Notes: generated by a model not told the origin, from the letters alone. 64,000 nt of DNA from Candidatus Sericytochromatia bacterium (GCA_018780035.1 JADMKE010000003.1:18753-82752), one strand, 5' to 3'; positions 498-22,475 are shown, counted from the stretch's first letter. Translations and numbers: made by a program.

Positions 498-981
498 GGG
501 GTATTTCTCCTTGAAATATTTGAAAATAGGCGGGGTAGCGGTTGTGGATTCGCAACAATAATTCTGGCAGGGCAGCAGTGACAATCGGGGAAAGCCCTGT
601 GCCTGAGCCAAAGTCGGCTCCTTCGATGCCAAACAGCGTTAGGGCTTGGGGCAATTCCCCCAAGGCCTTGGCCATTTCAATCGCTTCGGCCACACTGAAG
701 GCATGGGTGGAATAGTGAAAAAAACGTGAGGGAATGACCTGTTCTGAGGCCTCCAGCTCAAAGACCGTGCCAGGCAGCGCGCCAGAACAGACCGCGTCTA
801 CCAGCACAACCTGCTCATGCCCTTGCCAAGCCGCCATCAACGAACTGCCTTCGCCACTTTGGGTCTGCAGTTCGACTCCCTGCAAGTCTGACCTTTGCAG
901 CAGTTTGATGATGGCTGGGCCCAGGCCGTCGTCTTTGCGAAAGCCATTGCCAATGCCGAGGACCAAAAGCGGTTTTAACAT
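490..981 (-). CDS. [NiFe]-hydrogenase maturation endopeptidase (HyaD/HybD/HoxW family)
   Basis: N-terminal LVLGIGNGFRKDDGLG motif, about 160 aa. Sits in the hydrogenase operon and overlaps the pntB stop by 7 nt. Confidence 0.8.
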   Translation of the reverse strand: MLKPLLVLGIGNGFRKDDGLGPAIIKLLQRSDLQGVELQTQSGEGSSLMAAWQGHEQVVLVDAVCSGALPGTVFELEASEQVIPSRFFHYSTHAFSVAEAIEMAKALGELPQALTLFGIEGADFGSGTGLSPIVTAALPELLLRIHNRYPAYFQIFQGEIPHA

Positions 982-2414: not shown

Positions 2415-2701
2415 GAGGGCGGTCCCGCAGAATCGGATTTTTTCTCAAACATGTTTAACATGCGGTCGGTGACCACATAGCCCCCGACCACGTTGACCGT
2501 GGCAAAGATCACCGCAGCCGTGCCCAAGAGGGTCCCCCAGAGGGAATGCCCCGAACCCGCAGCCAAGATCGCCCCCACCACCGTGATCCCTGAAATGGCG
2601 TTGGAGCCCGACATCAGGGGGGTGTGCAATTGTGAAGGCACACGGGCAATGAGTTCAAAGCCCAAAAAAGCGGAGAGAATGAGGATCAACAGCAGTTCCA
2701 T
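2411..2701 (-). CDS. pntA: NAD(P) transhydrogenase alpha subunit part 2 (PntAA2, small membrane subunit)
   Basis: Start taken at MELLLILILSAF (ATG 2701..2699), which overlaps the stop of the upstream pntAA as ATGA. Hydrophobic 3-TM sequence typical of the split PntA membrane part. The ORF-track N-terminal extension overlaps the upstream gene and is rejected. Confidence 0.75.
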   Translation of the reverse strand: MELLLILILSAFLGFELIARVPSQLHTPLMSGSNAISGITVVGAILAAGSGHSLWGTLLGTAAVIFATVNVVGGYVVTDRMLNMFEKKSDSAGPPS

Positions 2702-3858: not shown

Positions 3859-5153
3859 GCGCGCGCCACCTCCAATTTGAGGAAATGGGTCGAGCAGGAG
3901 ATGCAGGGGTCGTAATTGCGAATGGCCTGTTCGCAGAGATGTTGCAATTCGGGGTCGGCTTTGTCCAAATACAAGGGCAATAAATGCCGCAAATCTGCTT
4001 CGATGGTCTTCTGGTTCTGCGAGGTCGGCGGCACAATTTTGGCATTAAGAATCAGCCCATTGGCATCAATCTCGTAGCGGTGATAACAGATGCCCCTGGG
4101 GGCTTCGGTACAGCCATGGCCTTTTCCCGCTTTAAGAGGCCCAGACACAAACGCCGTATCGGGCTTTTGGTAAAGTTCAATCAGGCGCAGGGCTTCTTCC
4201 AGTGCGTAGAGGGTTTCCAGGCTGCGCACCAAAATGCTTTTAAACGGGTTGTGGCAATGTTCAGCAATCCCCACTTCTTCGGCGAGGGCTTTGACACTGG
4301 GGCTGAGTTGCTCAAAATTGAGGTTGTACCGTGCCATGGGCCCGACAAAATAGGCCCCATGGCCAGTGTGGATGGAATGCAATGCCGTCGAGCGGGCCAC
4401 GTGTTCTTCTTCAAAATGTCTTTCGTATTCAGAGATGGGAATATCCAGGCCCAAATTGGAGACCAAGCGGCCTTCGTGAATGGCGTATTCGCTCGGGTGT
4501 TTGAGGGCCACATATTCATATTCCCGCTCAAAGGCTGGGAATTCAAATCCTGCCACCCAGCGCAGGGTTTCTATTGCCGCTTCCCGCGCCCATTCCAATT
4601 CGGGTTTCAGCGCAAGCAATTCTGTTTTTTCGGGCAGGCGGTAAAAGCCCCCCACCTGTAAATTGATCGGGTGGATTTCCCGGCCACCCAAAAGGGTCAT
4701 CAGGGTATTGCCAATTTTTTTTAAACGCAAACCGCGTTTGACGGCTTCTGGCGCGACTTTGGCCAGGGCCACCGCATCTGGAAAACCGAGAAAATCTGGG
4801 GCGTGTAACATGTAAATATGCAAAACATGGCTTTCGATCCACTCGCCGCAGTAGATCAGCCTGCGCAAACTGCGCAAAGGTTCGGGGACTTCAAGTCCGA
4901 GAATCGCTTCCATGGCCTGCACGGCCCCCATTTGGTAGGCAATCGGGCAAATGCCGCAGATCCGCGAGGTGATGTCTGGCGCTTCGCGGTAGTCGCGGCC
5001 CCGCAAAAAGGCCTCGAAGAAGCGGGGTGGCTCAAAAATTTTCAGTTGGACTTCTTCCAATGTGCTGCCGTTCATTTGGATATACAGCGCCCCTTCCCCC
5101 TCGACCCGGGCCAGGTAGTCCACAGATATGATCCGGCGTTTTTTCTCACTCAT
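3855..5153 (-). CDS. [NiFe]-hydrogenase large (alpha) subunit, group 3b sulfhydrogenase-like
   Basis: N-terminal [10 protein letters not shown] and C-terminal DPCISCSTH nickel-ligand motifs. Start chosen at [13 protein letters not shown] (ATG 5153), preceded by GAGGAG at -13. The longer ORF-track start overlaps the small-subunit gene. Confidence 0.85.
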
Positions 5154-5910
5154 GCTGCAGGCTCTCCTCTCGAAAGGCGGGGGCATTGCTATTAAAGCCC
5201 CGGTATAATCGGACCAATTCGGCTTCACTGACCCCCAAAGATTTAAACGCTTGGCTCAATGCCGCCGGATGGGGGGAATCCGAGGGGCCAAAACAGCCAT
5301 AACAGCCCCGTTGGTAGGCTGGGCAAATCGCGCCACAGCCCGCGTGGGTCACTGGGCCCAAACAGGGGATTCCCTGTGAGACCATGACACAGACCGTGCC
5401 CCTGAGTTTACATTCATGACAGACACTTTCGCTGGGCAAATGGGGCTTGCGCCGGTTTAAGAGGGCGTTGATCAGCTCCAGCAATTGGTTTTTATTGATC
5501 GGGCAGCCCCGCAATTCAAAATCGACTTTGATATGCTCGGAGATCGCCGTGGATTGGCTGAGGGTTTGAATGTATTCGGGCCGGGCGTAGACCATGCGCA
5601 TAAAATCTTCGACAGCCTGAAAATTGCGCAGGGCCTGAATCCCCCCAGCGGTGGCACAGGCCCCAATGCTGATCACCCAAGTTGATTGGGCCCGAATGGC
5701 TTCGATCCGCTCCAAATCGTGGGGGGTGGTGATGGAGCCCTCGACCAGAGAAATGTCATAGGGGCCCGCCACCACCGCCCGGCTGGCCTCTGGAAAATGG
5801 GCAATTTCAAGGGCCTCTGCCACCATCAGCAATTCGTCTTCACAGTCCAATAAACTGAGCTGGCAGCCATCACAGGAGGCAAATTTCCAAACAGCCAATT
5901 TGGGTTTCAT
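5146..5910 (-). CDS. [NiFe]-hydrogenase small (delta) subunit, group 3 type
   Basis: [22 protein letters not shown] Fe-S cluster-binding N-terminus and a C-terminal Cys cluster ([11 protein letters not shown]...[15 protein letters not shown]). Confidence 0.85.
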
Positions 5911-6750
5911 TTAGACCTCCCGGGTATTCAAAAGAGATTGGACCTTGTCATAGCGAAAGACAGGGCCGTCTTTGCAAATAAAGTGGGGGCCATATTGGCA
6001 GTGGCCACAGAACCCCACGGCACATTGCATATTGCGCTCCAAAGAGACATAGATCTGTTCGGGCTTAAGGCCTTTTTCCAAGAAGGTGTGGGCACTGTAG
6101 CGCATCATAATTTCGGGGCCGCAGATCAGGGCCAAAGTCCGATCGGCATCCAGGTCTTGGGCTTGGATCAGCGAAGTCACCACCCCTACCCGGCCCTGCC
6201 AGCTCTGTGTGGCTTGATCGAGGGTGATATGCACGGCGATCTCTGCACCTGTCTGCCAGGACAGCAATTCGTCGGCATAGAGGATTTCTGCATGTTGTCG
6301 GGCACCATAGAGCAAGGTCAGCGAACGGATTTCAGAGCGCATCGCCAGCGCGGCATAAATCACAGGCCGAACAGGGGCCAAACCCAGCCCCCCGGCCACA
6401 ATCACCAAATCTTTGCCTTTGGCTTTGTGTAAGGGCCAGGCGGAGCCAAAGGGCCCACGAATGCCCAGTGATTGCCCTGGTTTGAGTTCAGCCAAGGCGT
6501 TGGTCACAGCTCCCACTTTGCGAATGGTGTGGATTTGCGCCGAGGTGTTTTCGGGCGAGCCTGAGATTGAAATGGGCACTTCTCCCACCCCAAAGACATA
6601 GAGCATATTAAACTGCCCTGGCCGAAACGGATTGAGCGTCTGGACACGCGTTTGCACTTCAGGCTTTTCACAACTCAGGCTAAAGGTCTGAGGGGTTTCC
6701 CAGCGAAAATCGCTGATACGCCAGACCTCTGGCAAAAGCGCTGGGCTCAT
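5911..6750 (-). CDS. Hydrogenase gamma subunit, FAD/NAD(P)-binding oxidoreductase with C-terminal 2Fe-2S (AsrB/PyrK-like)
   Basis: FNR-like fold ([42 protein letters not shown]) and a C-terminal [17 protein letters not shown] cluster motif. Confidence 0.8.
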
Positions 6751-7208
6751 TTTTGATCTCCATAGAAATCCAATAATTGTAATCGCGTGGCCTGCAGTCG
6801 TTCTACCATCATTTGTCCAAAGCGGCGTTGGATCAAATACCCCATTTCATGGTCTGTTTCACATTGCTCCAAAAAGGCTTTGGCATCAAAGACCAGAATT
6901 TGGCTTTCTTCGAGGGCCTGGGCATCAAAATGCCATTTATACGGGGGATAGAGCCAAGACCAGCCCAGCAGATCCCCTTCATGCAGGGTTTGGATCCGCA
7001 CACTGCCCCGCTGTGAAGAAAACATTTCAATCGCCACCGTGCCCGATTGAATCAGGTAAAAGGCTTCCGCTTTGCCGCCCAATTTAAACACAAAATCGTG
7101 AGCGGCAAAGGTCTGAAGGTGTGCGCAGCGAATCAGGGCCTGCAGATAGGGGGTGGGTAAATCTTTAAAATGGCGTTGTTTGCGGATCGCGTCCTCTTTA
7201 ATTTCCAT
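6747..7208 (-). CDS. Stand-alone cyclic-nucleotide-binding (CAP effector) domain protein embedded in the hydrogenase operon
   Basis: 153 aa with the full cNMP-binding beta-roll pattern (FVFKLGGKAEAFYLIQSGTVAIE...GSVRIQTLHEGDLLGWSWL...ALEESQILVFDAKAF) and no HTH. AGGAGA Shine-Dalgarno 6 nt upstream of the ATG. ATGA overlap with the gamma subunit. Confidence 0.7.
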   Translation of the reverse strand: MEIKEDAIRKQRHFKDLPTPYLQALIRCAHLQTFAAHDFVFKLGGKAEAFYLIQSGTVAIEMFSSQRGSVRIQTLHEGDLLGWSWLYPPYKWHFDAQALEESQILVFDAKAFLEQCETDHEMGYLIQRRFGQMMVERLQATRLQLLDFYGDQK

Positions 7209-7219
7209 GGGGGTTCTCC

Positions 7220-8392
7220 TTATGTTTTTGTTTGTAATGCGTTCAAAGCTTCAATTTCTGAGGTGAGATCGATTCCCACCGGGCACCAGGTAATACAGCG
7301 GCCACAGCCGACACAGCCCGATTGGTCAAATTGGTCCTGCCAAAAGGCCAGTTTGTGGCTGATCCACTGTCGGTAGCGTGCGCCTGGGCTTTGGCGAATC
7401 GGCCGACCCGCAGTAAGTGTAAAATTCAATGAAAAACAGGAGTCCCACTCACGCCAGCGCTCACTGCTTGTGCCTGCCAAGTCGGTCACTTCTTGAACCC
7501 CCGAACAAAAACAGGTGGGGCAAACCAGGGTGCAATTGCTGCAACTCAGACAGCGCTCTCCCACGTCTTTCCAATGGGTGCTTTCATACCCACTTTTTAA
7601 GGCCGCGCTGGCCTGTTCGGGATTCAAACTGCGGCCCATCTGTGCTGCCGCCGCTGTCCACAACGCATTTTCTTTTTCCAGCAGTGTTGCTGGAGCATGG
7701 CTTGGGTTGCAGTGTTTGAGCAGCTCAGCCCCTTTGGCGCTGCCGGCACGGGCCAGATAACAGGGCTCTGCGGTTTCAAGCATTTCAGTGATGGCCAGAT
7801 CGTAACCGGGCCCGGCTGCTGGGCCTGCCTCCATCGAGACACAAAAGCAGGTATTGCCGGGCTCGGTGCAGTTCACAGCCAAAATAAAGATCTGTTCCCG
7901 TCTTTCCCGGTAAAAATCATCGCTGTAAGGGCCTTCGAGAAAGACCCTGTCTTGGATTTGAATCGCTTTGAGTTCACAGCCACGCACGCCAATCATGGCG
8001 TATTTGGGCACTTCCTGATCGGGGGCCGTGATCTGCAAACCACGGCTGTTTTGTTCCGCTCTCATCAACAATTGCCGGGGTGGGTAGAGGTATTTTTTCC
8101 AAGCTTGGGGGCCCACAACATAGCCAAACAAGGCTGCATCGTCTCGGGACCGCAAGCGGTAAGAGCCTTTTCCTTGAATATCGCCGATACCCATCGGCAG
8201 ATCCGCTGTACTCTGAATGCGGTCGTAGACAATGGCCTGATCCCTGACCACGGGGCCCACGGTCTGATACCCAGCGGCCTGTAATTGGCTGAGCAGCAGA
8301 TCCAAATGCAGGCGCTGAAGAAGTACGACTTCTGTTTGCATCTTCCCTGATTCCCCCGTTTCTCGGCTCCTTTGAGGAAACACGATCCTCAT
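7220..8392 (-). CDS. Hydrogenase beta subunit, 4Fe-4S ferredoxin-type (AsrA-like)
   Basis: CLSCSNCTLVCPTCFC and CVGCGRCITWCPVGI cluster motifs. The start may instead be the internal MQTEVV at 8341 (GGGGGA Shine-Dalgarno). Confidence 0.75.
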   Translation of the reverse strand: MRIVFPQRSRETGESGKMQTEVVLLQRLHLDLLLSQLQAAGYQTVGPVVRDQAIVYDRIQSTADLPMGIGDIQGKGSYRLRSRDDAALFGYVVGPQAWKKYLYPPRQLLMRAEQNSRGLQITAPDQEVPKYAMIGVRGCELKAIQIQDRVFLEGPYSDDFYRERREQIFILAVNCTEPGNTCFCVSMEAGPAAGPGYDLAITEMLETAEPCYLARAGSAKGAELLKHCNPSHAPATLLEKENALWTAAAAQMGRSLNPEQASAALKSGYESTHWKDVGERCLSCSNCTLVCPTCFCSGVQEVTDLAGTSSERWREWDSCFSLNFTLTAGRPIRQSPGARYRQWISHKLAFWQDQFDQSGCVGCGRCITWCPVGIDLTSEIEALNALQTKT

Positions 8393-8513: not shown

Positions 8514-9566
8514 ATGAAACCCCAGCCACGAAATTCTGTCGGAGTACATACCAAAAATGCCCAATTTGCAGGCTTTTCTTGGGCTTATCCCCGCAATATT
8601 CGTGCAGAAATTGTCATTTATACAGGGCTGACGGGGTATCTTGAAGCCCTAACAGATCCGTCTTATCAGGGGCAAATTCTGGTGTTTACCTCTCCCCAAG
8701 TGGGCAATTATCTGCCTGATTTGACCCGGATGCAGTCCCCCCGGATTCAAGTCGCCGGTCTGGTGGTCAGGGCCTATAGCCCGCCTCCAGAGCGCCCAAA
8801 CCAAGTCACTTTGGCCCAGCTTTTGCACACAGCCCAGATCCCGGCCCTGATGGGGGTCGACACCCGCAGTTTGACTTTGGCGCTGCGCCAAGACACCCAA
8901 ACCAGGCGCGAAGTCGCGCTGATCACCGCGCCGGGAGCGCCGATTGAAAATCCCGCCTTGCCCCATCCCGCTCAGGTCGCAATTCGGGCCCCGTATTTGC
9001 ACAAGGGTGGCGAAAAAACAGTGGTCTTGGTGGATTGTGGCGTCAAAAAACAGCTTTTAGACCTGCTGCTGCAGGCAGGTTTAAGTGTTTGGCAGGTTCC
9101 CTGGGACTATGATTGGCGGGATTTGCCCCATCAGGGCCTGTTGCTTTCAAATGGCCCAGGCAATCCCGCTGAGTGTGAAACCACAATTTCGATTTTAAAA
9201 GCCGCTCTCAATCCGCAGATCCCTGTTTTGGGCATTTGTCTGGGGGCACAATTGCTCGGCCATGCGGTGGGAGCAAGCACCGCTCCCCTGCCTTTTGGCC
9301 ACCGGGGGGCCAATCATCCCTGCCGCGATCGTTTGAGTGGGGCCTGTTATATCACCGCCATGAATCATGGCTATGCGCTTGTTTCGGAGAGTTTGCCCCC
9401 GGAATGGCATCTTTGGTTTGAACATCTCCACGATGGCAGTTGTGCAGGCCTGAAACACCGTGTATTTCCTTGGCGGGGGGTGCAATTTCACCCGGAGGGC
9501 TGCCCTGGCCCCACAGACACGGCATTTATCCTTGAGGATTTTCTGAGCGAGGTTCTCGATGCCTGA
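8514..9566 (+). CDS. carA: Carbamoyl-phosphate synthase small (glutaminase) subunit
   Basis: CarA N-terminal domain plus class-I glutamine amidotransferase motifs (GICLGAQLL, GHRGANHP). Confidence 0.9.
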   Translation: MKPQPRNSVGVHTKNAQFAGFSWAYPRNIRAEIVIYTGLTGYLEALTDPSYQGQILVFTSPQVGNYLPDLTRMQSPRIQVAGLVVRAYSPPPERPNQVTLAQLLHTAQIPALMGVDTRSLTLALRQDTQTRREVALITAPGAPIENPALPHPAQVAIRAPYLHKGGEKTVVLVDCGVKKQLLDLLLQAGLSVWQVPWDYDWRDLPHQGLLLSNGPGNPAECETTISILKAALNPQIPVLGICLGAQLLGHAVGASTAPLPFGHRGANHPCRDRLSGACYITAMNHGYALVSESLPPEWHLWFEHLHDGSCAGLKHRVFPWRGVQFHPEGCPGPTDTAFILEDFLSEVLDA

Positions 9567-12237
9567 ATCCGTTTTGGTGCTGGGCTCGGGGCCGATTCAA
9601 ATTGGCCAAGCAGGGGAGTTTGACTATGCCGGGGCCCAGGCCCTCAAAGCGCTCAAAGAAAAGGGGTTCCGCACCCTTTTGTTAAATTCGAATCTGGCCA
9701 GTGCCCAGACGCTGGGGGTCTTTGCCGATCGCGTGTTTGCCCTGCCACTCTCACCCGCCTCGGTAGAAACTATTCTGGCAAGTGAAACCCCAATCGGGGT
9801 TTTGGCGGGATTTGGCGGCCAATCGGCCCTCAATTTGGCCTTGGAACTCGATCAAGCAGGGCTGTTAAAGCGCTTGCCCCTGCTCGGCACCGCTCTGGAG
9901 ACCCTGATGATCTGTGAAGATCGCTTGAAGTTTTTTAGATTTTGTCAGAATCTGGGTTTGCCAGTTCCCAAGACCTATGTTTTGTCGGATCTCTCGGCCT
10001 TTAATACTGAATTAAACGCAACAGACGTCTTTCCCTTGCTGCAGCGCAAAAGTTTTGCCTTGGGGGGCCAAGGCGCGGTCTTTTATCCCAACTTGGCGGC
10101 ATTGTGGGCAGATCCCGGCCTCAAAGATCGTTTGAACCCCGCAGCACTTTTAAACGCGCCACTTCTGCTCGAAGAAGATCTCAGGGGCTGGCAAGAAATC
10201 GAGTTTGAAGTTTTGGCAGATGCTGCGGGCAATCAATTGGTGGTCTGTGCCACTGAAAACATTGACCCAATGGGCATCCACACGGGGGACAGCTATGTGG
10301 TCACGCCGCCGATGACATTGAGTGATACCAGCTATTTTGAGCTGCGGGCGGCAGCCTTGAAATTGGTCTCCGCCCTGAAATTGGTCGGGGAATGCAATGT
10401 GCAATTTGCTTACCATCCCAAATGCGGCGACTACCGCCTGATCGAATTGAACCCCCGTTTGAGCCGCAGTTCTGCGCTGGCCTCCAAAGCCACGGGTTAT
10501 CCGATCGCCTATGTGGCCACCCAATTGGCCTTGGGTGCGCTTTTGCCAGACATCGCCCATCCGCTAACGGGGGGCACCTCCTGTTTCTTTGAACCGGCCC
10601 TGGACTATGTTGTGGTCAAAGCTCCCCGGTGGCAATTTGACAAATTTCCGGGGGCCGATCGGCATTTGGGGCCCGAGATGAAATCCATCGGTGAAAACAT
10701 GGGGATCGGGGAAGATTTTGCTTCTGCCTTTGCCAAAGCCTGGGCCATGACTCAAACATTGCCCCTGCCCCATTGGTCAAACAGCGCTTTGCGGCAAGAA
10801 TTGGCCTGTCCCACAGATTTGCGCATGTCGGCCCTGTTTTCGGCATTCGAACAGGGCCTGGATTTGGCTGAAATTGAGGCCTTAACAGGGTTCTCTGGCT
10901 GGTTTTTGCAGGCCTTTAAAGATCTGGCACCCTCGCTCAAAACGGGCCGACTTGGTTTTTGGGGCTTTCGCCAAATCGACACCTTGGCGGGCGAGTTTCA
11001 GGCCCAAACGGCTTATCTCTACGGTGGCCAAGCCCTTGAATACACCTTCGGGCCAGGGCCCTGGGTCTTGATTCTGGGCAGTGGGCCCTATGGGATTGGC
11101 AGCTCGGTTGAATTCGACTTTTGCTGTGTCAGCGCGATTTATGCCTTGCAAGCGGCGGGGTACAAGGTGGCTTTGCTGAATTCAAATCCAGAAACCCTGA
11201 GTACAGATTGTGATGTGGCGGATGCCTTGATCTTTGAGCCGCTGCTGCCTGAAAGCCTGAATGCGGTGGTGGCTGCACTCAGACCCGTGGGGATCTTGGC
11301 TTCGCTGGGGGGGCAAACACCCCAGAATTTATTGCAGGTCTTGCCCCGGCATTGGCCTTTTTGGGGCCCGCCGCTAGACCAGATTTTAAAAGCTGAAAAT
11401 CGCCTGGCATTTGCCCTGGCCCTGGATCAATTGCAGATCCCCCAGGCCCCTTGGGCCAAAGTGACATCTTTGGCTGACGCTTTGGCGTTTGGCCAAAAGG
11501 TCGGATACCCACTGATCTACCGTCCCGCGTTTGTCTTGGGGGGCGGGGGTATGCAAGTGATTAAAAATGCCCAAGCATTAGAAAAATGGGGCGATTTATT
11601 GCAGCTCCAGGGGCCTTTGCCCCGTACAGAGGGGGCCTTGCTGAACCGCTTTTTGGCGGAGGCCCAAGAGTTTGAACTCGATGGCATCGCCCGTTTGGGG
11701 CATTTGGAATATTATCTGTTTTCAGAAAATATTGAACCCTCAGGCATTCATTCCGGGGATTCTCACCATGTCTTCCCGGCCCAAAGCCTGTCCCCTGAGG
11801 TGCGCGCCCAGGCTTTGACTTATGCAATAACTTTGGCACAATCGTTTGAACTTCACGGTTTGTTTAATCTCCAGTTTTTTTACCATCAAGGTGCGGTTTT
11901 GCTGGTCGAAGCCAATTTGCGCGCTTCCCGCAATCTGCCTTTTTTGAGCCATGTTTCGGGCCAGAACCTGGTCAGTTTGGCGATTGAGCGCCTGCTTTCA
12001 GACGCCCCCTTGGCAGAAGCCCCTGTCGAAATCAGCGCAGATCAGGTTGGAATCCGTGTGCCGACGTTTTCTTGGGAGCGCATGTGCGGGGCCAAACGAG
12101 AATTGGGGGTGGAAATGAAGGCCACTGGCGAGTTTTGTCTGCTGGCGGACAGCTTTGAAAACGTGCTTCAGCTGTGTTATACTTTGCCAGATTTTTGTGC
12201 CTTCACACCGTCTTGGCGCCTCTCCAAAGGAGAATGA
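9559..12237 (+). CDS. carB: Carbamoyl-phosphate synthase large subunit, compact 892 aa form lacking the C-terminal MGS-like allosteric domain
   Basis: MPESVLVLGSGPIQIGQAGEFDYAG start. Two ATP-grasp halves, the second starting near WVLILGSGPYGIGSSVEFDF. The protein ends right after the second synthetase half. Overlaps carA by 8 nt. Confidence 0.85.
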   Translation: MPESVLVLGSGPIQIGQAGEFDYAGAQALKALKEKGFRTLLLNSNLASAQTLGVFADRVFALPLSPASVETILASETPIGVLAGFGGQSALNLALELDQAGLLKRLPLLGTALETLMICEDRLKFFRFCQNLGLPVPKTYVLSDLSAFNTELNATDVFPLLQRKSFALGGQGAVFYPNLAALWADPGLKDRLNPAALLNAPLLLEEDLRGWQEIEFEVLADAAGNQLVVCATENIDPMGIHTGDSYVVTPPMTLSDTSYFELRAAALKLVSALKLVGECNVQFAYHPKCGDYRLIELNPRLSRSSALASKATGYPIAYVATQLALGALLPDIAHPLTGGTSCFFEPALDYVVVKAPRWQFDKFPGADRHLGPEMKSIGENMGIGEDFASAFAKAWAMTQTLPLPHWSNSALRQELACPTDLRMSALFSAFEQGLDLAEIEALTGFSGWFLQAFKDLAPSLKTGRLGFWGFRQIDTLAGEFQAQTAYLYGGQALEYTFGPGPWVLILGSGPYGIGSSVEFDFCCVSAIYALQAAGYKVALLNSNPETLSTDCDVADALIFEPLLPESLNAVVAALRPVGILASLGGQTPQNLLQVLPRHWPFWGPPLDQILKAENRLAFALALDQLQIPQAPWAKVTSLADALAFGQKVGYPLIYRPAFVLGGGGMQVIKNAQALEKWGDLLQLQGPLPRTEGALLNRFLAEAQEFELDGIARLGHLEYYLFSENIEPSGIHSGDSHHVFPAQSLSPEVRAQALTYAITLAQSFELHGLFNLQFFYHQGAVLLVEANLRASRNLPFLSHVSGQNLVSLAIERLLSDAPLAEAPVEISADQVGIRVPTFSWERMCGAKRELGVEMKATGEFCLLADSFENVLQLCYTLPDFCAFTPSWRLSKGE

Positions 12238-14384
12238 GTTCAAACGTGGATTTTGAGCCCCCCCACAGCGATGATTGGATTGAATTGACCCAGTTGGAAG
12301 ACCTCCTGCCGCCAGCCAGTGTGGCGGACCCCGCGTCCCCACTTTTGCCGCCGGCCCCCGAGCGTTATACCTTTATGGGCACCGTCGGCAAAGGCGCCAT
12401 GGGTGAGGTTTTGCTGGCCCAAGATGTGCATTTGCGTCGCAAAGTGGCCTACAAAAAAATCCTGCCGCAGATGGCTGTCAGTCAGCAGGTGTTGAGCCGC
12501 TTTTTTGCCGAAGCGCAAATCACCGCCCAACTCGACCATCCGGCCATTATTCCGGTTTACAACCTGGAAGTCAGTCCCGAAGGCCAAATCGCCTATTCGA
12601 TGAAGCTGATTCAGGGCAAAACCCTCAAAGAGCTGATCAGCGAAGCCCGCGAGCAATACCAGGCCGGACAAAAGCCCGATCCCCAGCACAGTCTCGATGC
12701 CCTGCTCAGGCATTTCCTCAAAGTCTGTGATGCCCTCTATTTTGCCCATATCAAAGGGGTGATTCACCGCGATCTCAAACCCGCCAATATCATGGTGGGC
12801 ATGTACCACGAGGTCTATGTGATGGACTGGGGCATTGCCCGAATTATGGGTGGGGCCGAAGCCCGGATCGATGACGAGGTGGTCAGGTTGATTCATCCCG
12901 ATGCCGATGCGCCCCCGCTCGAACGCACCCAAATGGGCCAAATCATGGGCACACCGCGTTATCTTTCACCTGAGCAGGCTGCCGGGAAAAACGATTTGCT
13001 CGATGGCCGCAGCGATCTCTTTGCCCTGGGCCTGATCCTGTTTGAATTGGTGACGCTCAAACCGGCGTTTACAGCCAAGACCCAGATCGAACTCCTCAAA
13101 AAAATCCTCAAAGCCGAAAAAGAGCCGCTGGAACACAGCCAAGCGGGTGTCAAAATTGCCAAAGAATTAGAGGCGATTATTCACAAAGCCACCGCCCGGC
13201 GCAAAGAGCACCGTTATGCTGATGTGGCCGAATTGGCCGAAGATCTGCGCCGCTATTTGCGGGGCGAAGCGGTGCTTGCGCGCCCGGATCGTTTTTGGCA
13301 AAAGACCCGCCGTCAGATGATGCGACACCGGCAGGCCACGCTGTTGGGGCTGTCTCTGTTGGTTTTTCTCTCGCTCAGTGGTGCAGCAGGGTTATTGGCC
13401 TTGCGCAGCCAGGCCATGTTGGCGGCACGGGCCCACGAACAGCGTCTGGGGGACTTTCTCGAAACCGTGGCAGAGCGCAGCCGTTTGCTCGACCGGCAGT
13501 TTTTTCTGACGGAGATGGCGCTGGAAAGTCTGGCGGCGATTGTGACCGAGGCCCTGTTTCAGGGGGAACGCAGTGATCAACGCCTGTATCTGGACGGAGA
13601 TTATGCCCAAGTGCCTCCCCCAGATTTTGGCTTTGCGCCCCGCTATGGCAAAGCGATCAGCACGGCCTGGCCGGTGTTTAAATTGGCCCCTGGCAGTGAT
13701 TTAAACGCCCTGCGTGGGAAAATGCAGAAACTCAATCGCCTGCATTTGGATCTGGGCCGCCTCTTTTTGCGCGGGCAATTGGGCAATTTGCCTGTGCCGC
13801 CACCTGCGCAATTGCGCCAGAAGATTGTGAACGGGGAAGGCACCCTCTTGCGTTGGGTCTTTGCGGGGCTCAAAGAGGGCCTGATGTTTGCCTATCCCGG
13901 CAAAGGGGGCTATCCCGCTGATTACGATCCCAGGCAACGCCCCTGGTACAAACAAAGTGCTCAGACCCGGGGGTTGCACTGGCAAAAACCCTATTTGGAT
14001 GTGCAGGGCCAAGGCCTGATGTTGACCTGCACCCGTGCACTGTATGACTATAACGAGCGCTTTTTGGGCGTCGCAGGGGCAGAAATTGCCCTCAAAGACA
14101 TTCTCAAATTATTGCCCCTGCCCGATGCCCGCGCCCGCAAGGTCTATTTGCTGAATCAGGCCATGCAGGTGGTTGCCGAACAGAGCACAGGCCAAGCGGC
14201 CAAGACCATGGGCGCGGCGGGCCAACGTTTGGCTTTTCCCTGGCCCGAAGCCCTGCCCGCTTTGCGTGCCCGCGACAGTGGCTTTGTTAACCAGGGCCAA
14301 ACGCTGTTGGTCTTTTACCGCCTGGATATTCTCGGTTGGACCTATGTGGTCGAAGCCGATCAGGCTTTGGAGCTGCAGCCATGA
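12234..14384 (+). CDS. Receptor Ser/Thr protein kinase with periplasmic Cache-like sensor domain
   Basis: Start at MSSNV (AGGAG Shine-Dalgarno, ATGA overlap with carB). Gly loop GKGAMGEV, VAYK lysine, HRDLKPANIM catalytic loop, DWG in place of DFG, SPE motif. A TM helix (LLGLSLLVFLSLSGAAGLLAL) follows. The C-terminal extracytoplasmic domain carries a Cache signature (PWYKQS...W.KPYLDVQGQGLMLTCTRALYD...FLGVAGAEIAL). Confidence 0.8.
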   Translation: MSSNVDFEPPHSDDWIELTQLEDLLPPASVADPASPLLPPAPERYTFMGTVGKGAMGEVLLAQDVHLRRKVAYKKILPQMAVSQQVLSRFFAEAQITAQLDHPAIIPVYNLEVSPEGQIAYSMKLIQGKTLKELISEAREQYQAGQKPDPQHSLDALLRHFLKVCDALYFAHIKGVIHRDLKPANIMVGMYHEVYVMDWGIARIMGGAEARIDDEVVRLIHPDADAPPLERTQMGQIMGTPRYLSPEQAAGKNDLLDGRSDLFALGLILFELVTLKPAFTAKTQIELLKKILKAEKEPLEHSQAGVKIAKELEAIIHKATARRKEHRYADVAELAEDLRRYLRGEAVLARPDRFWQKTRRQMMRHRQATLLGLSLLVFLSLSGAAGLLALRSQAMLAARAHEQRLGDFLETVAERSRLLDRQFFLTEMALESLAAIVTEALFQGERSDQRLYLDGDYAQVPPPDFGFAPRYGKAISTAWPVFKLAPGSDLNALRGKMQKLNRLHLDLGRLFLRGQLGNLPVPPPAQLRQKIVNGEGTLLRWVFAGLKEGLMFAYPGKGGYPADYDPRQRPWYKQSAQTRGLHWQKPYLDVQGQGLMLTCTRALYDYNERFLGVAGAEIALKDILKLLPLPDARARKVYLLNQAMQVVAEQSTGQAAKTMGAAGQRLAFPWPEALPALRARDSGFVNQGQTLLVFYRLDILGWTYVVEADQALELQP

Positions 14385-16489
14385 GTTCCGAACAGATCTC
14401 CCCGCCCGATGAAATGGAAGAATTATTGCAGACGATCACGGCTGATTATAAACTCAGCTCAGAGCAACTCAGCACCCCGGGGCGTCAGTTTTACGCCCTG
14501 ATCGCACATTTGGCAGCCGGTGAAATGGGCCAGATAGATTTGGTCAAAGAGAGCGCCTTGCAGCGCAAAGTGGCGATGAAAATGGTGCGTCAGCAAGAAA
14601 AACCGGCCCGCATTCGGCGTTTTTTGTTGGAGGCACAAATCACCGCCCAACTCGACCATCCCCACATTGTGCCCGTTTACAGCCTCGAAAACACCCAAGC
14701 CGGTCTGGCCTATACCATGAAACGGGTCCAGGGACAGACCTTCCGAGAGCTGATCGATGCTTCACAATCGCAGGCCATGCCCGTGATGCCTTTGACCCAG
14801 CGTTTGGAAGTCTTTTTGGCTGTGTGTGATGCCCTGGAATATGCCCACAGCCGGGGCGTGATTCACCGCGAATTGGAGCCCAATAACCTGATGATCGGCC
14901 ATTTTCATGAGGTCTATGTGATGGATTGGGGCTTGGCCCGTGTTTTGCCTGACTCACCTTTAGAAGTGCGCATTCCGCCAGAATTGGCGCAAGATCATGA
15001 GGAAGACAGTCCGCTTGAAGGCAATCTCTGCTATTTTTCGCCCGAACAGGCCAAAGGACAATGGGCCGAACTGGATCAGCGCAGCGATCTCTATGTCCTC
15101 GGCCTGATCCTCTACGAATGGATTTGTCTGCGCCCCGCCCGCACGGGTGATTCTTACCTGGCGCTTTTGCAAATGGCTGAACAGGGCTGGGTCAACCCGC
15201 CCGCTTTGCCAGGCGCACAAAAACTCCCGAGTGAGCTGACTGCGATTTTGCACAAAGCCACGGCTTTGAAACCTGAGCAGCGCTACGCCAGTGCCAGCGC
15301 ATTGGCCGATGACCTGCGCCGCTATCTCAAGGGAGAGAGTGTCTCCGCCCAACGGGACACCCTGTTGCAGAGCACAAGTCGGTTGCTCGTCAGGCACCAG
15401 TTGTTGGCCCTCGGCACGGTCTTGACCTTGGTTCTGCTCTGCTCTCTGCTTGGGCTCTGGAGTCTTTGGAGCCAACAGCGTGAATTGGCGCGTTTGCGTG
15501 CCCGCGAGCAGGCCCTCAATCGCTATTTGGGTGCGGTTTACGCCCAAAGCCGCCTCATGAACCGCCAATTTCTCAAAGCCGAAATGCAACTCGAAGCGCT
15601 GTCTGCGGTGGCGGTCTCCCATCTGACCCAGCAAAATCCGGTCAGGGATCGCTATTATTTGCACAAAAAATTTAACCCCCCCGATCAAGTGGCCTCCCAG
15701 CAATACCACAGTCAGCTCAGTGTCAATTGGCCTCTTTCAGTCAAAACCTGGTCTTTGCCTGAATCTCAAGTGGCAAAAGAATTGGGCAGCTTGTCCAGTT
15801 TGCGCCATTTTCAAAAACGCCTCTTGATCGAGAGCAAAACCCCCGAACGCCTCAGCCCTTTGGAGAAACAAACCCTGATTGCCCAAAGTGGCACCCCTGT
15901 GAGTTATGCCACTTTGGTGCTCAAACAAGGTGCGGGGGCCTGGCTGCCGGGGGGCGATTTTGAGAGCCAAAACTACGATCCGGTGATCCGGCCCTTTTAC
16001 AAATTTGGGGCCTACCAACACGCCCGGCGCTGGGGCAATCCGTATATCGACGTCAGTGGGGCTGGCTTGCTCTTGATTGCTGCCACAGGTCTCTTTGATC
16101 ACCAGAACCAGTTTTTGGGCACCGCCAGCCTGGATGTTAAATTTGACACGATCATTCAGACCATGTTGGCCCTGCCACCGGCGTTGCGCACCTTAAAAGG
16201 GGGCTATTTATTGGACGATCAGGGCCGGATTGCGATTCGCTCGAATCAAAAGGGCCAGCAGTTTTCAGCCACCATTCACCCCGATTTAAAATTGCCCGAC
16301 TACCCCCACCCGGCTGTGGTGAAAGCGATCAAGGCCCAACAATCGGGTCACCAGATTTTGCCCGGCAAACAGCCGCTTTTGGTTGCCTATTACCGCATTC
16401 CCGCTTTGGGTTGGTATTATTTGGTCGAAAGCGATTTGGAAAAGGCCCTGTTAAATGAATTTACTCAGCAAAAAAATGAATTTAATTAA
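14381..16489 (+). CDS. Paralogous receptor Ser/Thr kinase-like protein with Cache-like sensor. Predicted pseudokinase (HRD to HRE, Lys to Glu in the catalytic loop, degenerate Gly loop)
   Basis: Same MSS start and ATGA coupling as its upstream neighbour. VAMK lysine kept, but the catalytic loop reads HRELEPNNLM and the Gly loop is AAGEMGQ. DWG motif. TM helix (LALGTVLTLVLLCSLLGL) and a C-terminal Cache signature (RPFYKFG...W.NPYIDVSGAGLLLIAATGLFD...FLGTASLDVKF). Confidence 0.75.
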   Translation: MSSEQISPPDEMEELLQTITADYKLSSEQLSTPGRQFYALIAHLAAGEMGQIDLVKESALQRKVAMKMVRQQEKPARIRRFLLEAQITAQLDHPHIVPVYSLENTQAGLAYTMKRVQGQTFRELIDASQSQAMPVMPLTQRLEVFLAVCDALEYAHSRGVIHRELEPNNLMIGHFHEVYVMDWGLARVLPDSPLEVRIPPELAQDHEEDSPLEGNLCYFSPEQAKGQWAELDQRSDLYVLGLILYEWICLRPARTGDSYLALLQMAEQGWVNPPALPGAQKLPSELTAILHKATALKPEQRYASASALADDLRRYLKGESVSAQRDTLLQSTSRLLVRHQLLALGTVLTLVLLCSLLGLWSLWSQQRELARLRAREQALNRYLGAVYAQSRLMNRQFLKAEMQLEALSAVAVSHLTQQNPVRDRYYLHKKFNPPDQVASQQYHSQLSVNWPLSVKTWSLPESQVAKELGSLSSLRHFQKRLLIESKTPERLSPLEKQTLIAQSGTPVSYATLVLKQGAGAWLPGGDFESQNYDPVIRPFYKFGAYQHARRWGNPYIDVSGAGLLLIAATGLFDHQNQFLGTASLDVKFDTIIQTMLALPPALRTLKGGYLLDDQGRIAIRSNQKGQQFSATIHPDLKLPDYPHPAVVKAIKAQQSGHQILPGKQPLLVAYYRIPALGWYYLVESDLEKALLNEFTQQKNEFN

Positions 16490-16604
16490 TGTTTTACTTA
16501 TTTCAATCGGCCCTTGCCCTTATCTTGTTAGAATGGACTACCCATGGTGAGAGATAGAGAACGAATTAACCCCCCCTATTTTTTTCTAAACACCAAACCA
16601 ATAC

Positions 16605-18536
16605 TTGAATTTCCAGGATAAAATAGTGAAGAAAAAAGCATTTTCGAGTCATTTCCGCTACCATTTTGACAATTTGATGTCTAAAGGAACGCCAGCAATG
16701 ATTGGCTTGCTGTTTGCGTTTACGGCTGTTGTCTTGTTTGTGATTGCCACTGTGCTGATCAACTCTCCGGCAGTTCCGATCGAAAACAACAAACCCATGG
16801 GACTGGGCAAAGCCCTTTACATTATTTTGTTGCGCACCCTTGATCCGGGCACCATGGCCGGAGACGTTGGCCCCTGGTCCTTTTTGTTTACCATGTTGGG
16901 CGTCACGCTCTTTGGTCTTTTTGTTGTCAGTATCTTAATTGGTTTGATCACCAGTGGTATCGAGAGCAAATTGGACGAATTGCGCAAAGGGCGCTCAGGT
17001 GTGATTGAAAGCAATCACACGGTGATCTTGGGCTGGTCCTCCCAGGTGTTTACAATTATCTCCGAATTGATGGTGGCCAATGAAAATGCCAAAAAGCCCG
17101 TCATTGCCATTTTGGCCGAAAAAGACAAAGTTGAGATGGAAGATGAGATCCGCGATCGACTTGGTTCAACCGGCAAAACCCGTGTGATCTGCCGCAGTGG
17201 CAATCCGATTGAAATGAGCGATTTGCAAATCATCAATCCCCAAGAATCCCGTTCGATTGTGATTCTGGCCCCCGAAGACTCCGATGATCCCGACTCCCAC
17301 GTGATCAAAACCATTTTGGCTTTAACCAACCACCCCGAGCGCAGACCCGAACCCTACCATATTGTTGCCGAAATTCACTCGCCACAAAATCTGGATGTGG
17401 CCAAAATGGTGGGCGGAGACGAAGTCGAATTGGTGTTGGGCGAAGATCTGATTGCGAGAATCTCGGTTCAGACCTGCCGCCAATCGGGTCTGTCGGTGGT
17501 CTATACCGAATTATTGGACTTTGATGGCGACGAAATTTACTTTCAAACAGAACCCGGTTTGGTCGGCAAAACCTTTGCCGAAGCGATCATGTCTTACGAA
17601 GAGTCGGCCCTGATGGGGCTGCGCAAAGCCAATGGCGAAATTTTGATCAATCCCCCGCTCGAAAGCCTGATCGCCACCGGAGATAAAGTGATCGCCATTG
17701 CCCGTGACGATGATGCGGTGGTGCTGTCCAAGACCACCGATTACCAGATCGACGAAACTGCGATTCAATTGCGCGCTCCCGAGGCCAAAGTCCCTGAGAA
17801 AACCCTGATTCTGGGCTGGAACCAGCGGGGCTTTATTATCATGTCGGAACTCGACAATTATGTCAGCCCGAACTCAGAATTGACGATTGTGGCCGATGTA
17901 GAAGAATCTGTCGAAATGGCGATTCGGGCCCTCGGTGAAAAAATGACAAACCAAAGTCTGAGTTTTACCCAGGCAGATACCACCGATCGCCAAGTGCTGG
18001 AAAGCCTTCCGCTTGAAAGCTTTGCACATATTATTACCCTGAGTTATTCCGACACACTTGAAATTCAAGCTGCAGATGCCAAAACCCTGGTGACCCTGCT
18101 GCACCTCAGAGATATCTCCGAAAAAAGCCAGGTCGGCTTTTCGATTGTCAGCGAGATGTTGGATACCCGCAACCGCGAGCTGGCCTCGGTGACCCAGGCC
18201 GACGATTTTATTGTCAGCGATAAATTGATCAGTTTGATGCTCTCGCAGCTCTCAGAAAACAAAGAGCTGGGCCGGGTCTTTGACGATCTCTTTCAATCCG
18301 AGGGCTCCGAAATCTACCTCAAACCGATCGACGAATATATCCGCTTGGATCAGCCTGTCAATTTTTATACCCTGCTCAAAGCGGCCAGCCAGCGGGGAGA
18401 GTTGGCGATTGGCTACCGCCTGCAGGCCCACGCTCAGGATCGGGAAAATGGCTTTGGCGTCAAAGTCAATCCGAAAAAATCTGAGCGGATCCAATTTGGC
18501 CCCTTGGACAAATTGATCGTCTTGGCCGAAGATTAA
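16605..18536 (+). CDS. Castor/Pollux-like ion channel with two cytoplasmic RCK (TrkA-N-like) domains
   Basis: Conserved N-terminus (RYHFDNLMSKGT), two or three TM helices with a pore-like loop (GTMAGDVGPW), then two Rossmann-like regions (HTVILGWSSQV...; KTLILGWNQRG...). Start codon uncertain (TTG or GTG, no clear Shine-Dalgarno). Confidence 0.6.
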   Translation: MNFQDKIVKKKAFSSHFRYHFDNLMSKGTPAMIGLLFAFTAVVLFVIATVLINSPAVPIENNKPMGLGKALYIILLRTLDPGTMAGDVGPWSFLFTMLGVTLFGLFVVSILIGLITSGIESKLDELRKGRSGVIESNHTVILGWSSQVFTIISELMVANENAKKPVIAILAEKDKVEMEDEIRDRLGSTGKTRVICRSGNPIEMSDLQIINPQESRSIVILAPEDSDDPDSHVIKTILALTNHPERRPEPYHIVAEIHSPQNLDVAKMVGGDEVELVLGEDLIARISVQTCRQSGLSVVYTELLDFDGDEIYFQTEPGLVGKTFAEAIMSYEESALMGLRKANGEILINPPLESLIATGDKVIAIARDDDAVVLSKTTDYQIDETAIQLRAPEAKVPEKTLILGWNQRGFIIMSELDNYVSPNSELTIVADVEESVEMAIRALGEKMTNQSLSFTQADTTDRQVLESLPLESFAHIITLSYSDTLEIQAADAKTLVTLLHLRDISEKSQVGFSIVSEMLDTRNRELASVTQADDFIVSDKLISLMLSQLSENKELGRVFDDLFQSEGSEIYLKPIDEYIRLDQPVNFYTLLKAASQRGELAIGYRLQAHAQDRENGFGVKVNPKKSERIQFGPLDKLIVLAED

Positions 18537-21359: not shown

Positions 21360-22475
21360 TCAGGGCTGACTCAGATTCAGTTTGGGAATTAACCCCCGCA
21401 GGATTTCCGCGCTAAAAGGGTAATCCCGTGGATCTGCGCCCAACCAGCCCAGTTCAAACCTGTAAAAATCTGCCCAGGCAAAGTCAAACAGCTCCCGCCA
21501 TTCGGCAATAATGGCTTTTGCCAAGCTGGGATTGCCCAAGGCCTGTGCCAAAGTGTCAAAGTACAGCTCTAAATAGCCAGGAATTGCGGCTGCGGCCTGC
21601 GTCTCGGAAAAACAGGCAGACAAAAAATAGGCCAGATCTTTCATGCCACAGCCCCTGCCAACGTATTGAAAGTCCACGGCGGCCACCTGAAGCGGGGCGG
21701 TCTTGTGGGTTGAAAAACAGAAATTGGCGGGTTTGGCATCCCCGTGAATCAGGGTTTGAAAATGGCAGGTCTTGAGTTTTGTTGCAATGGCCGGTGCGGA
21801 TGATTTGAGGGGCCCATGTGGCAGGGCCTGCCATTCGTCTGGACGCGTCTCCAGATGCCAATAACTGCCCTCTTCCCAGAGTTCGGGGGCGACTTGGCCG
21901 AGAAAGCTTGCATGAAAATGAGCCAGCCAGCTCACAACTGCTGCCATTTCGGCGCTGTTTAAGTGTCGCCTGCGCTCGGGGTAGCCGACTGGGTCGAGGT
22001 CTTCTAAGAGCAGCCAATCGCCGTCTTGGGACTGTCCTTGTGCGAGAAAACGCGGGACCCGGCATGTTTGATTCAGGCCGTTGCTGTAGAGACTGTACCA
22101 GGTCCGCTCGATCTGGTACGACCTGACCTTACGCTGGTGGGAAAGGCTCTTTCCAGAGGTGTCAGCGGGGGGAGCGATCTGTTTTAAAATCACAGAGCCC
22201 ATTGGCGCCCCTTCCAGTTGCAGTCGCAGGATCTGGCCATAGCCTTTCCAAAGGGTTTGCACGGTCTCTATTCGGCTCAGGCCTTTGGCCCCGATTGCGT
22301 CTACAATGGGCGTCAGCCAGGGGCGAGGAACATTATTTGCGTTTTTCAAGTTCGGCCAACAGATCCGCGTGTTTGATGGCATTTTCATACTGCACTTCTG
22401 CGGAAATGTGTTCCTGTTCGCGGGCCACCAACGAGGCTTCGTAGAAAAAACCTCCCAGCCCCTGCTGCTGTTCAC
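21360..22475 (-). CDS. Phosphotransferase-family kinase (APH / choline-ethanolamine kinase-like fold)
   Basis: Brenner motif LIHGDAKPANF and VDFQYVGRGCGMKDLAYFL (DFG-equivalent). Start uncertain; it could be the internal MKMPSNT. Confidence 0.65.
   Translation of the reverse strand: MNSSRGWEVFSTKPRWWPANRNTFPQKCSMKMPSNTRICWPNLKNANNVPRPWLTPIVDAIGAKGLSRIETVQTLWKGYGQILRLQLEGAPMGSVILKQIAPPADTSGKSLSHQRKVRSYQIERTWYSLYSNGLNQTCRVPRFLAQGQSQDGDWLLLEDLDPVGYPERRRHLNSAEMAAVVSWLAHFHASFLGQVAPELWEEGSYWHLETRPDEWQALPHGPLKSSAPAIATKLKTCHFQTLIHGDAKPANFCFSTHKTAPLQVAAVDFQYVGRGCGMKDLAYFLSACFSETQAAAAIPGYLELYFDTLAQALGNPSLAKAIIAEWRELFDFAWADFYRFELGWLGADPRDYPFSAEILRGLIPKLNLSQP

Follow-up and report, generated by a model that had tools for sequence, protein, structure and literature searches.

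Cooperation between receptor kinases and receptor pseudokinases is well known in animals and plants; in ErbB2/ErbB3, one receptor paralogue has a substituted catalytic Asp, retains an ectodomain for ligand binding and works together with an active paralogue. The known bacterial pseudokinase families are stand-alone proteins in which ATP binding is mostly lost, and to our knowledge bacterial pseudokinases have been catalogued but very few have been studied. The catalogued families are ActPs1-3 (MviN), CP1, GLW, DYD and DLHK; the VAIK Lys is lost in part of all seven, at 34-100% depending on the family, and Cache domains and DWG motifs go unmentioned for them (PMC12599244; bioRxiv 10.1101/2025.01.12.632604). 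Ser/Thr kinases with a dCache_1 sensor are listed among the major receptor classes (PMC8915833), and the dCache_1(AA) sensor of a myxobacterial example, the Enhygromyxa salina kinase WP_106093935.1, binds amino acids as measured by calorimetry (Gumerov et al. 2022, PMC8915833). Here we describe a pair of adjacent genes, K1 and K2, in a stretch of 64,000 nucleotides (nt) from a metagenome-assembled genome (MAG) of Candidatus Sericytochromatia, an uncultured relative of cyanobacteria (GCA_018780035.1 JADMKE010000003.1:18753-82752; the whole of this stretch is called the window). The two genes are paralogues that encode receptors with one dCache_1 sensor each, and while the kinase domain of K1 looks intact by its motifs, that of K2 belongs to a conserved, predicted pseudokinase clade.

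Both open reading frames (ORFs) lie on the + strand, and their products are 36% identical across the whole length (E = 2e-116). Their features, with residues counted in amino acids (aa), are:

12234-14384, + strand: K1, receptor Ser/Thr kinase of 716 aa, catalytic motifs intact
12354-13268, + strand: Hanks-type kinase domain of K1, aa 41-345 (Pkinase 114.5 bits; 1mru, E = 1e-41)
12765-12788, + strand: catalytic loop of K1, HRDLKPAN, canonical
13332-13409, + strand: single transmembrane (TM) helix of K1, aa 367-392 (hydropathy peak 2.17)
13410-14381, + strand: extracytoplasmic dCache_1 sensor of K1, aa 393-716 (AlphaFold2 predicted local distance difference test, pLDDT, 94.2; Foldseek; phmmer)
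14381-16489, + strand: K2, paralogous receptor of 702 aa with a predicted pseudokinase domain
14486-15355, + strand: kinase-like (pseudokinase) domain of K2, aa 36-325 (Pkinase 97.8 bits)
14864-14887, + strand: catalytic loop of K2, HRELEPNN (motif alignment)
15020-15049, + strand: P+1 loop of K2, GNLCYFSPEQ, where the family has GTPxYxSPEQ
15383-15475, + strand: single TM helix of K2, aa 335-365 (hydropathy peak 2.51)
15476-16486, + strand: extracytoplasmic dCache_1 sensor of K2, aa 366-702 (AlphaFold2 pLDDT 93.9; Foldseek; phmmer)

Each start codon is backed by a database protein of the same length, P0001 for K1 (716 aa, 98% identical) and P0121 for K2 (702 aa, 100% identical). The K2 start overlaps the TGA stop of K1 as ATGA (14381-14384), the coupling that had been claimed by an earlier reading of the window made from the DNA letters alone (hereafter the sequence-only reading). 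A second coupling, absent from that reading, joins K1 to the carB-like gene upstream, whose stop overlaps the K1 start as ATGA (12234-12237), and the carA-like gene, the carB-like gene, K1 and K2 form a run of four tightly packed genes on one strand. ATGA is the commonest overlap in prokaryotic operons and is unremarkable alone. The sequence ATGAGTTC (M-S-S) opens both K1 and K2, as had also been noticed, but this shared start is limited to close relatives, with MSD or MKN in other orthologues.

The proposed architecture of a kinase, one TM helix and a C-terminal Cache sensor is confirmed by Pfam, hydropathy, AlphaFold2 and Foldseek. Pkinase (PF00069) scores above its cut-off of 31.7 in both proteins, and the closest solved relative of the K1 kinase domain is Mycobacterium tuberculosis PknB (1mru). 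For the sensors the profile scores are lower: dCache_1 (PF02743) reaches 37.6 in K1 and 35.0 in K2, both under the cut-off of 45, and MCP-like_PDC_1 reaches 44.1 in K1 and 21.5 in K2, above and below its cut-off of 27, respectively; most homologues carry precomputed PF02743 matches. By fold, both C-terminal regions are double-Cache (dCache_1). AlphaFold2 (predicted TM-score, pTM, 0.91 for K1 and 0.90 for K2) gives each a 50-residue stalk helix and then two alpha/beta modules, distal and proximal, both PAS-like, the proximal one ending 0-16 residues before the end of the protein. Foldseek matched these models to PctA, PctB, PctC, Tlp3, Mlp24, Mlp37, CtaA, PscC, alpha2delta-1 and Cachd1, and the top PDB matches are, with few exceptions, amino-acid-binding dCache_1 sensors at a probability of 1.00 and E values from 1e-9 to 1e-12, going down to 2e-12 for K1 (PctA, Tlp3, Mlp24, CtaA, alpha2delta-1) and to 2e-11 for K2 (PctA, Mlp24/37, CtaA), with TM-scores of only 0.4-0.6 for both. 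In phmmer searches against PctA (5ltx) the K1 sensor gave E = 7e-11 and the K2 sensor E = 5e-6, the latter match spanning both modules. Both sensors are about 70-80 residues longer than classical dCache_1 and have three extra short strands and three extra helices. This additional block sits between the stalk helix and the distal module (within 13410-14381 and 15476-16486), and when TM-scores are normalized to the query, eukaryotic alpha2delta-1 (0.64-0.69) lies above the bacterial sensor domains (0.4-0.5).

Hydropathy gave no second TM segment in K1 or K2 and nothing TM-like past the sensor. A strongly basic stretch, RFWQKTRRQMMRHRQ, precedes the TM helix of K1, which puts the kinase on the cytoplasmic side and the sensor on the external side of the membrane; the predicted topology is thus a cytoplasmic kinase with the last 324-337 residues of K1 and K2 extracytoplasmic. 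The sole TM helix and the output domain are both N-terminal to the sensor, which differs from the classical two-TM dCache topology.

Kinase motifs were compared in an alignment of 219 sequences, K1 and K2 plus 217 homologues. All canonical residues are present in K1 (VGKGAMGEV, VAYK, FFAEAQ, HRDLKPAN, DWG, GTPRYLSPEQ), including the VAIK Lys, the αC Glu, the HRD Asp, the catalytic-loop Asn and the Asp at the DFG position. K1 therefore looks catalytically intact, and here the sequence-only reading, which had pointed to HRDLKPAN, extends to every other motif. The corresponding motifs of K2 are LAAGEMGQI, VAMK, FLLEAQ, HRELEPNN, DWG and GNLCYFSPEQ. K2 retains VAIK Lys67, αC Glu84, Asn169 and DWG Asp182 but lacks one of the five residues by which competence was judged, the HRD Asp being Glu; in addition, the catalytic-loop Lys is Glu and the GT of the P+1 loop is GN.

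These changes characterize a clade and not K2 alone. Few positions emerged from a screen for those at least 85% conserved in the family yet changed in the K2 clade: the HRD Asp, now Glu (Asp in 100% elsewhere in the family); the catalytic-loop Lys, now Glu (Lys in 100% elsewhere); the P+1 Thr-Pro, now Asn-Leu (Thr in 99% and Pro in 98% elsewhere); a Met in the P+1 loop, an N-lobe Asp changed to Glu and an activation-loop Gly; and, outside the kinase domain, a Pro just past it and three sensor positions. In 8/8 members of the clade the replacements of the catalytic Asp, of the Lys in the catalytic loop and of the P+1 Thr-Pro occur jointly, whereas about 210 relatives show 98-100% conservation there, and the residues that took their place, E, E, N and L, are fixed in 7-8 of the 8, the P+1 loop reading GN(L/I). 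At the activation-loop position corresponding to PknB Thr171, T is found in 164 of 210 relatives, and Glu in four of the eight clade members, K2 included. All eight retain the VAIK Lys, αC Glu and catalytic-loop Asn, and seven retain the DWG Asp, one member having NWG. In PKA the catalytic Asp (D166), the catalytic-loop Lys (K168) and the P+1 Thr (T201) form an interacting triad. The pattern in K2 looks like a targeted loss of phosphotransfer and of substrate positioning, with nucleotide-binding residues retained, and the joint replacement across the clade, together with HRELEPNN, agrees with the earlier proposal that the second protein is probably unable to transfer phosphate. A pseudokinase is defined by sequence as a protein without at least one of the VAIK Lys, the HRD Asp and the DFG Asp (bioRxiv 10.1101/2025.01.12.632604), and K2 and all seven orthologue clusters, being without the HRD Asp, fall under this definition. 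K2 is thus a conserved predicted pseudokinase.

Two other motif features named in the sequence-only reading were observed but carry no weight here. The glycine-rich loop of K2 is indeed degenerate, but it was rejected as a sign of inactivity because G-to-A and G-to-D changes of this kind also turn up in relatives with an intact HRD. DWG does replace DFG in both proteins, but as a special feature of the pair it was likewise rejected, since 217 of the 219 aligned family members have it, as does the constitutively active CK2.

Clustered at 50% identity, the kinase family to which both proteins belong numbers over 150 full-length representatives. Cache sensors had been called rare on Ser/Thr kinases, which does not hold, given a family of this size and the published standing of dCache_1 kinases as a major class (PMC8915833). 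HRELEPxN, on the other hand, occurs in only eight 90%-identity clusters (P0121-P0128), which are 52-100% identical to K2; an exhaustive HMMER pass over 1.84 billion representatives returned a single 50%-identity representative of the K2 clade (P0128), and HRE was found in none of the 116 further family representatives inspected. By these motifs the K2 clade is small and nested in an otherwise active family. In a profile scan of contigs with the K2 alignment, which picked up generic kinase patterns, about 9 of 80 loci among the matches listed were family members, and the lineage of the window was not among them. The sister clade of the K2 pseudokinases (P0129, P0130, P0132) keeps HRD and has a wrecked glycine-rich loop (LSSGPSAEV, LTSSPQGEI), and one of its members (P0132, at 8001-10133 in L089) is the upstream gene of another tandem pair, adjoining TrkH and TrkA; this sister clade may represent a second, independent route to a degenerate partner within the same family.

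Further kinase domains occur within single proteins of the family. P0219 (1349 aa) has HGGLRPSN, which is pseudokinase-like, a DFG kinase and then a DWG kinase with a TM helix, and P0273 (1092 aa) has a DFG kinase followed by a DWG kinase, a TM helix and a Cache sensor, so that pairing of kinase domains also takes place inside one polypeptide. We considered these two proteins and P0309, P0319 and P0320 as possible K1-K2 fusions and rejected them, as they are not fusions of the K1/K2 type; no fused "Rosetta stone" protein was found among 150 representatives.

The pairing of the two genes is conserved. Profiling of the pair across relatives showed that the K1-type gene lies directly upstream of the K2-type gene, with overlapping stop and start, in 7/7 lineages with upstream DNA, the overlap ranging from 4 to 11 nt:

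window: 4 nt
L001/L002: 4 nt
L093: 4 nt
L006: 11 nt
L094: 8 nt
L003-L005: 4 nt
L091/L092: 4 nt

Among these lineages no lone K2-type gene was seen, and the K1-type partners have HRD wherever the region is present, as well as a ligand pocket ending in Glu. The pair is retained down to 52% identity while the flanking genes change: upstream lie carAB-like genes in the window and L001 only, a 2OG-Fe(II) oxygenase gene in L006 and RecG in L091, and downstream an unknown 301-aa gene in L006 and a CsgG-like gene in L003 and L091. No FHA or PP2C gene adjoins the pair. In a neighbor-joining (NJ) tree, which has no bootstrap support and is indicative only, the K1 and K2 clades are each monophyletic and branch in the same order. 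The members of one pair in which both HRD motifs are intact (L087) branch just outside the K1 and K2 clades, respectively, which places the duplication before the catalytic Asp was lost.

Both proteins are under purifying selection. Compared with the window, the kinase domains in L001 are 91% (K1) and 79% (K2) identical and the sensors 78% and 84%; in L006 the corresponding values are 75% and 60% for the kinase domains and 65% and 69% for the sensors. The ratio of nonsynonymous to synonymous substitution rates (dN/dS), calculated by the Nei-Gojobori method between the window and these two relatives carrying both genes, is 0.06-0.22 in every domain, and in K2 it is 0.09-0.22 for the kinase-like domain and 0.11-0.16 for the sensor, all of these values being rough because dS is near saturation (0.6-2.1). 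Kinase-domain dN in K2 is 2.7x (L001) and 1.7x (L006) the value in K1. The K2 sensor is thus at least as constrained as that of K1, whereas the K2 kinase-like domain is under purifying but more relaxed selection, which fits the expectation for a domain that has lost catalysis but still serves a structural role.

The two sensors differ in their pockets. The AA_motif of dCache_1 comprises, in PctA numbering, Y121, R126, W128, (Y129), Y144 and D173 (PMC8915833). At these positions K1 has YRWYYE (Y564, R569, W571, Y572, Y587, E617) and K2 has YRFYYD (F539 and D585, with Y532, R537, Y540 and Y555), so that each departs from the full motif by one residue and at a different place, D173 being E in K1 and W128 being F in K2. 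Each signature is conserved within its clade and differs between the clades, and the two partners have different pocket types in every pair examined; the K2 clade has, in addition, a Y-to-L change and an R-to-V change in the YDPRxR segment of its sensor. Because neither pocket departs from the amino-acid motif by more than one residue, the ligands are probably small and amino-acid-like, or an amine or carboxylate, although the class is a guess. Two different ligands are a plausible counterpart to two different, clade-conserved pockets.

Taken together, these observations lead us to favor, with a confidence slightly above even, a coupled two-subunit receptor in which K1 is the catalytic subunit and K2 a pseudokinase partner that tunes it. 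K1 and K2 would be bitopic receptors from a large family of bacterial Hanks kinases of the DWG type; their genes would stem from an ancient tandem duplication, and coupled translation would yield the two proteins together. K1 would be the enzyme, while K2, which keeps the kinase fold and most nucleotide-binding residues, would be a pseudokinase because it has replaced the residues (HRD Asp, catalytic-loop Lys, P+1 Thr-Pro, activation-loop Thr) responsible for positioning the substrate hydroxyl and removing its proton. K2, probably nucleotide-binding and non-catalytic, would pair with K1 in the membrane, most simply by heterodimerization, which is plausible from conserved adjacency and co-divergence. 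Each sensor would bind its own small, probably amino-acid-like ligand, and K2 would relay its ligand state to K1 allosterically and so tune the autophosphorylation and the output of K1.

Several points weigh against this reading. Glutamate can in principle act as a general base, and the ATP-binding residues of K2 are still present, so that some remaining or atypical activity is possible. PctA loses ligand binding through D173A or D173N (PMC8915833), and it is this position that is E in K1; in K2, F replaces W128. As read by eye from the alignments, Asp76 of the PknB salt bridge is Asn in K1 and Ser in K2, and PknB Arg10 is conserved in K1 and replaced by Phe in K2. The geometry of the PknB dimer is not transferable because these N-lobe residues are not conserved; of the back-to-back dimer residues Arg10, Leu33 and Asp76 only Leu33 is conserved in both proteins, which is uninformative either way. 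Moreover, most family members recovered without bias are single genes, so a partner is not required in general.

A stricter form of the favored arrangement, which we advance tentatively, as possible but rather doubtful, is an obligate heteromer in which a ligand-binding pseudokinase co-receptor allosterically gates its active paralogue and two different periplasmic metabolites converge on a single kinase output. If true, prokaryotes would possess an equivalent of ErbB2/ErbB3-type or plant co-receptor signaling, one that arose independently in sister lineages of the cyanobacteria, and the signal would leave dCache_1 through the N-terminal stalk helix instead of the usual C-terminal TM helix.

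The alternative that fares best is that K1 and K2 are two independent homodimeric receptors, with K2 acting as a scaffold, a decoy or a substrate of K1, and that their adjacency reflects duplication history and shared transcription. Tandem pairs in which both HRD motifs are intact exist elsewhere in the family (L087, L088, L089, L016), and most members recovered without bias from species-representative genomes are single genes (L007-L013), so that adjacency need not mean a heteromer. The lack of the PknB-type salt bridge, seen by eye, is also compatible with independence. On the other hand, an overlapping arrangement kept in all seven lineages to 52% identity while the flanks change, the same branching order in both clades and the lack of any lone K2-type gene amount to a retention that exceeds what is expected for unrelated functions, and we regard independent receptors as somewhat unlikely.

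More unlikely again is that K2 is an active, atypical kinase with Glu164 as its base and a remodeled substrate site, which would make the pair two active kinases with different substrates. The nucleotide-binding and metal-binding residues that K2 keeps (VAIK Lys, αC Glu, catalytic-loop Asn, DWG Asp) speak for activity, and the strict conservation of the remodeled E, E, N and L would fit a new specificity as well as it fits loss. However, the three interacting residues are replaced together, which leaves two negative charges at the gamma-phosphate site, the NWG orthologue has given up the metal-binding Asp as well, and the raised dN of the kinase domain and the standard sequence definition both point to a pseudokinase.

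The sequence-only reading had further suggested that the Castor-like channel next door could be a target of the pair.

16605-18536, + strand: Castor/Pollux-like RCK channel gene (Pfam Castor_Poll_mid, TrkA_N, Slo-like_RCK), given for context only

Phosphorylation of this channel could be combined with any of the other readings. The gene starts about 115 nt downstream of K2 on the same strand and adjoins the pair in the window, L001/L002 and L093, and an unrelated pair of the same family (L089) adjoins TrkH and TrkA potassium-uptake genes, a faint echo of the same association. The channel is adjacent only where K2 is at least 77% identical, as residual synteny would produce; at 64% and 52% K2 identity other genes take its place (the 301-aa gene in L006, the CsgG-like gene in L003 and L091), and there is no translational coupling. 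Its G+C content is clearly lower, at 0.49 (taken at 16001-18000) against 0.56-0.57 for the kinase genes. The neighborhood was therefore described correctly for part of the lineages, and the channel as a target seems to us improbable. An EcKL/APH-type small-molecule kinase gene lies three genes downstream (21360-22475, - strand) and recurs near the pair in L001/L002 and L093.

Finally, that K2 is a functionless duplicate decaying into a pseudogene, as its faster-evolving kinase domain might suggest, is very improbable and essentially excluded, since eight 90%-identity clusters, reaching to as little as 52% identity, preserve the reading frame, dN/dS is as low as given above, the sensor is as conserved as that of K1 or more so, and the substitutions are fixed across the clade.

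Upstream of the pair lie the first two genes of the run and a promoter match:

8514-9566, + strand: carA-like gene (carbamoyl-phosphate synthase small subunit; Pfam CPSase_sm_chain plus GATase), first of the run
9559-12237, + strand: carB-like gene, 892 aa (NCBIfam NF003671, 828 against a cut-off of 599)
12155-12183, + strand: sigma-70-like promoter match, TTGAAA-17-TATACT with an extended TG, a consensus match only

The carA-like gene scores 313.7 against NCBIfam TIGR01368 (cut-off 307) and overlaps the carB-like gene by 8 nt. With 892 aa, the carB-like product is shorter than the NCBIfam carB models (about 1,050-1,060 positions); in Pfam the allosteric, MGS-like domain expected at the C terminus went unmatched and the oligomerization domain was represented by a 44-residue piece of CPSase_L_D3 only, and the product may be a trimmed, unregulated carbamoyl-phosphate synthase. 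In L001 the corresponding gene (5154-7793) is called as two ORFs of 317 and 560 aa. We considered and rejected the carAB-like coupling as a link between the kinases and amino-acid or nitrogen metabolism: it does not extend beyond L001, where the genes are 70 nt apart. The promoter match (10/12, with the extended -10 TG) falls in the 3'-terminal part of the carB-like gene, some 50 nt ahead of the start codon of K1, and from this candidate promoter the kinase pair may be transcribed on its own as well.

Elsewhere in the window, a soluble four-subunit NiFe hydrogenase cluster (975-8392, - strand) is divergent from the carA-like gene, and its copy in L001 includes a cNMP-binding protein:

975-2414, - strand: PntB transhydrogenase gene
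2701-3858, - strand: PntA transhydrogenase gene
3855-5228, - strand: NiFe hydrogenase large subunit
5146-5910, - strand: NiFe hydrogenase small subunit
5911-6750, - strand: NAD-binding/FeS hydrogenase subunit
7220-8392, - strand: Fer4_22 hydrogenase subunit

At 26284-28893 (+ strand) an 869-aa protein carries five Big_5 Ig-like repeats and a C-terminal ice-binding-like domain (239.9 bits), and at 40008-45986 (+ strand) a 1,992-aa protein combines Pkinase, AAA_16, GAF, HisKA, HATPase_c and response-regulator receiver domains, that is, a Ser/Thr kinase fused to a hybrid histidine kinase.

PknB and PknD are kinases that are activated by dimerization and phosphorylation of an activation-loop Thr. 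Like them, K1 and K2 have an N-terminal cytoplasmic kinase, one TM helix and a C-terminal extracytoplasmic sensor, and PknB is the closest solved kinase domain; however, the sensor of PknB/PknD is PASTA or a beta-propeller, their motif is DFG and not DWG, and the salt-bridge Asp76 of PknB is in neither K1 nor K2, Arg10 being in K1 only. Neither protein reaches the NCBIfam cut-offs: NF033483 (PknB/Stk1 PASTA) gives 224.6 for K1 and 180.7 for K2, both below the cut-off of 450, and NF009651 (PknD) gives 225.8 and 174.6, both below 839.

On the sensor side, fold and ligand-pocket positions match those of PctA, Tlp3 and Mlp24. In classical dCache receptors the sensor lies between two TM helices and the signal exits through the C-terminal one (PMC8915833), whereas K1 and K2 have a single TM helix, ahead of the stalk helix, and their C termini lie just past the sensor; the greater length of the K1 and K2 sensors and the TM-scores of 0.4-0.6 are further differences. 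The E. salina kinase resembles K1 and K2 in joining a Hanks kinase to an extracytoplasmic dCache_1, and their sensors are closest to amino-acid-binding dCache_1. It differs in having the full AA_motif (against D173E in K1 and W128F in K2), and no pseudokinase partner or tandem pairing is described for it.

The pair provides a two-gene system for asking whether receptor kinase-pseudokinase cooperation exists in bacteria, and for asking how dCache_1 signals with a membrane helix on its N-terminal side only. As the sensor domains of K1 and K2 fold confidently in silico, their separate expression for ligand screening would be feasible. Because few sequences make up the clade and its organisms are uncultured, the practical importance is limited.

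Like the catalogued pseudokinase families, K2 keeps the Hanks fold and has lost a residue of the catalytic triad in a conserved manner. Unlike them, it keeps the VAIK Lys and the Asp at the DFG position and lacks the HRD Asp only, and it forms one 50%-identity cluster inside an active family and has its own ligand-binding sensor. Our literature search found no paper combining pseudokinase and dCache. The working arrangement, with the partnership of K1 and K2 conditional as set out above, would be like that of ErbB2/ErbB3, although there is no homology beyond the kinase fold, and the ectodomains and the topology differ, the kinase being N-terminal in K1 and K2. What is new at this locus is the combination: a predicted pseudokinase with a sensor of its own, nested in an active family and translationally coupled to an active paralogue.

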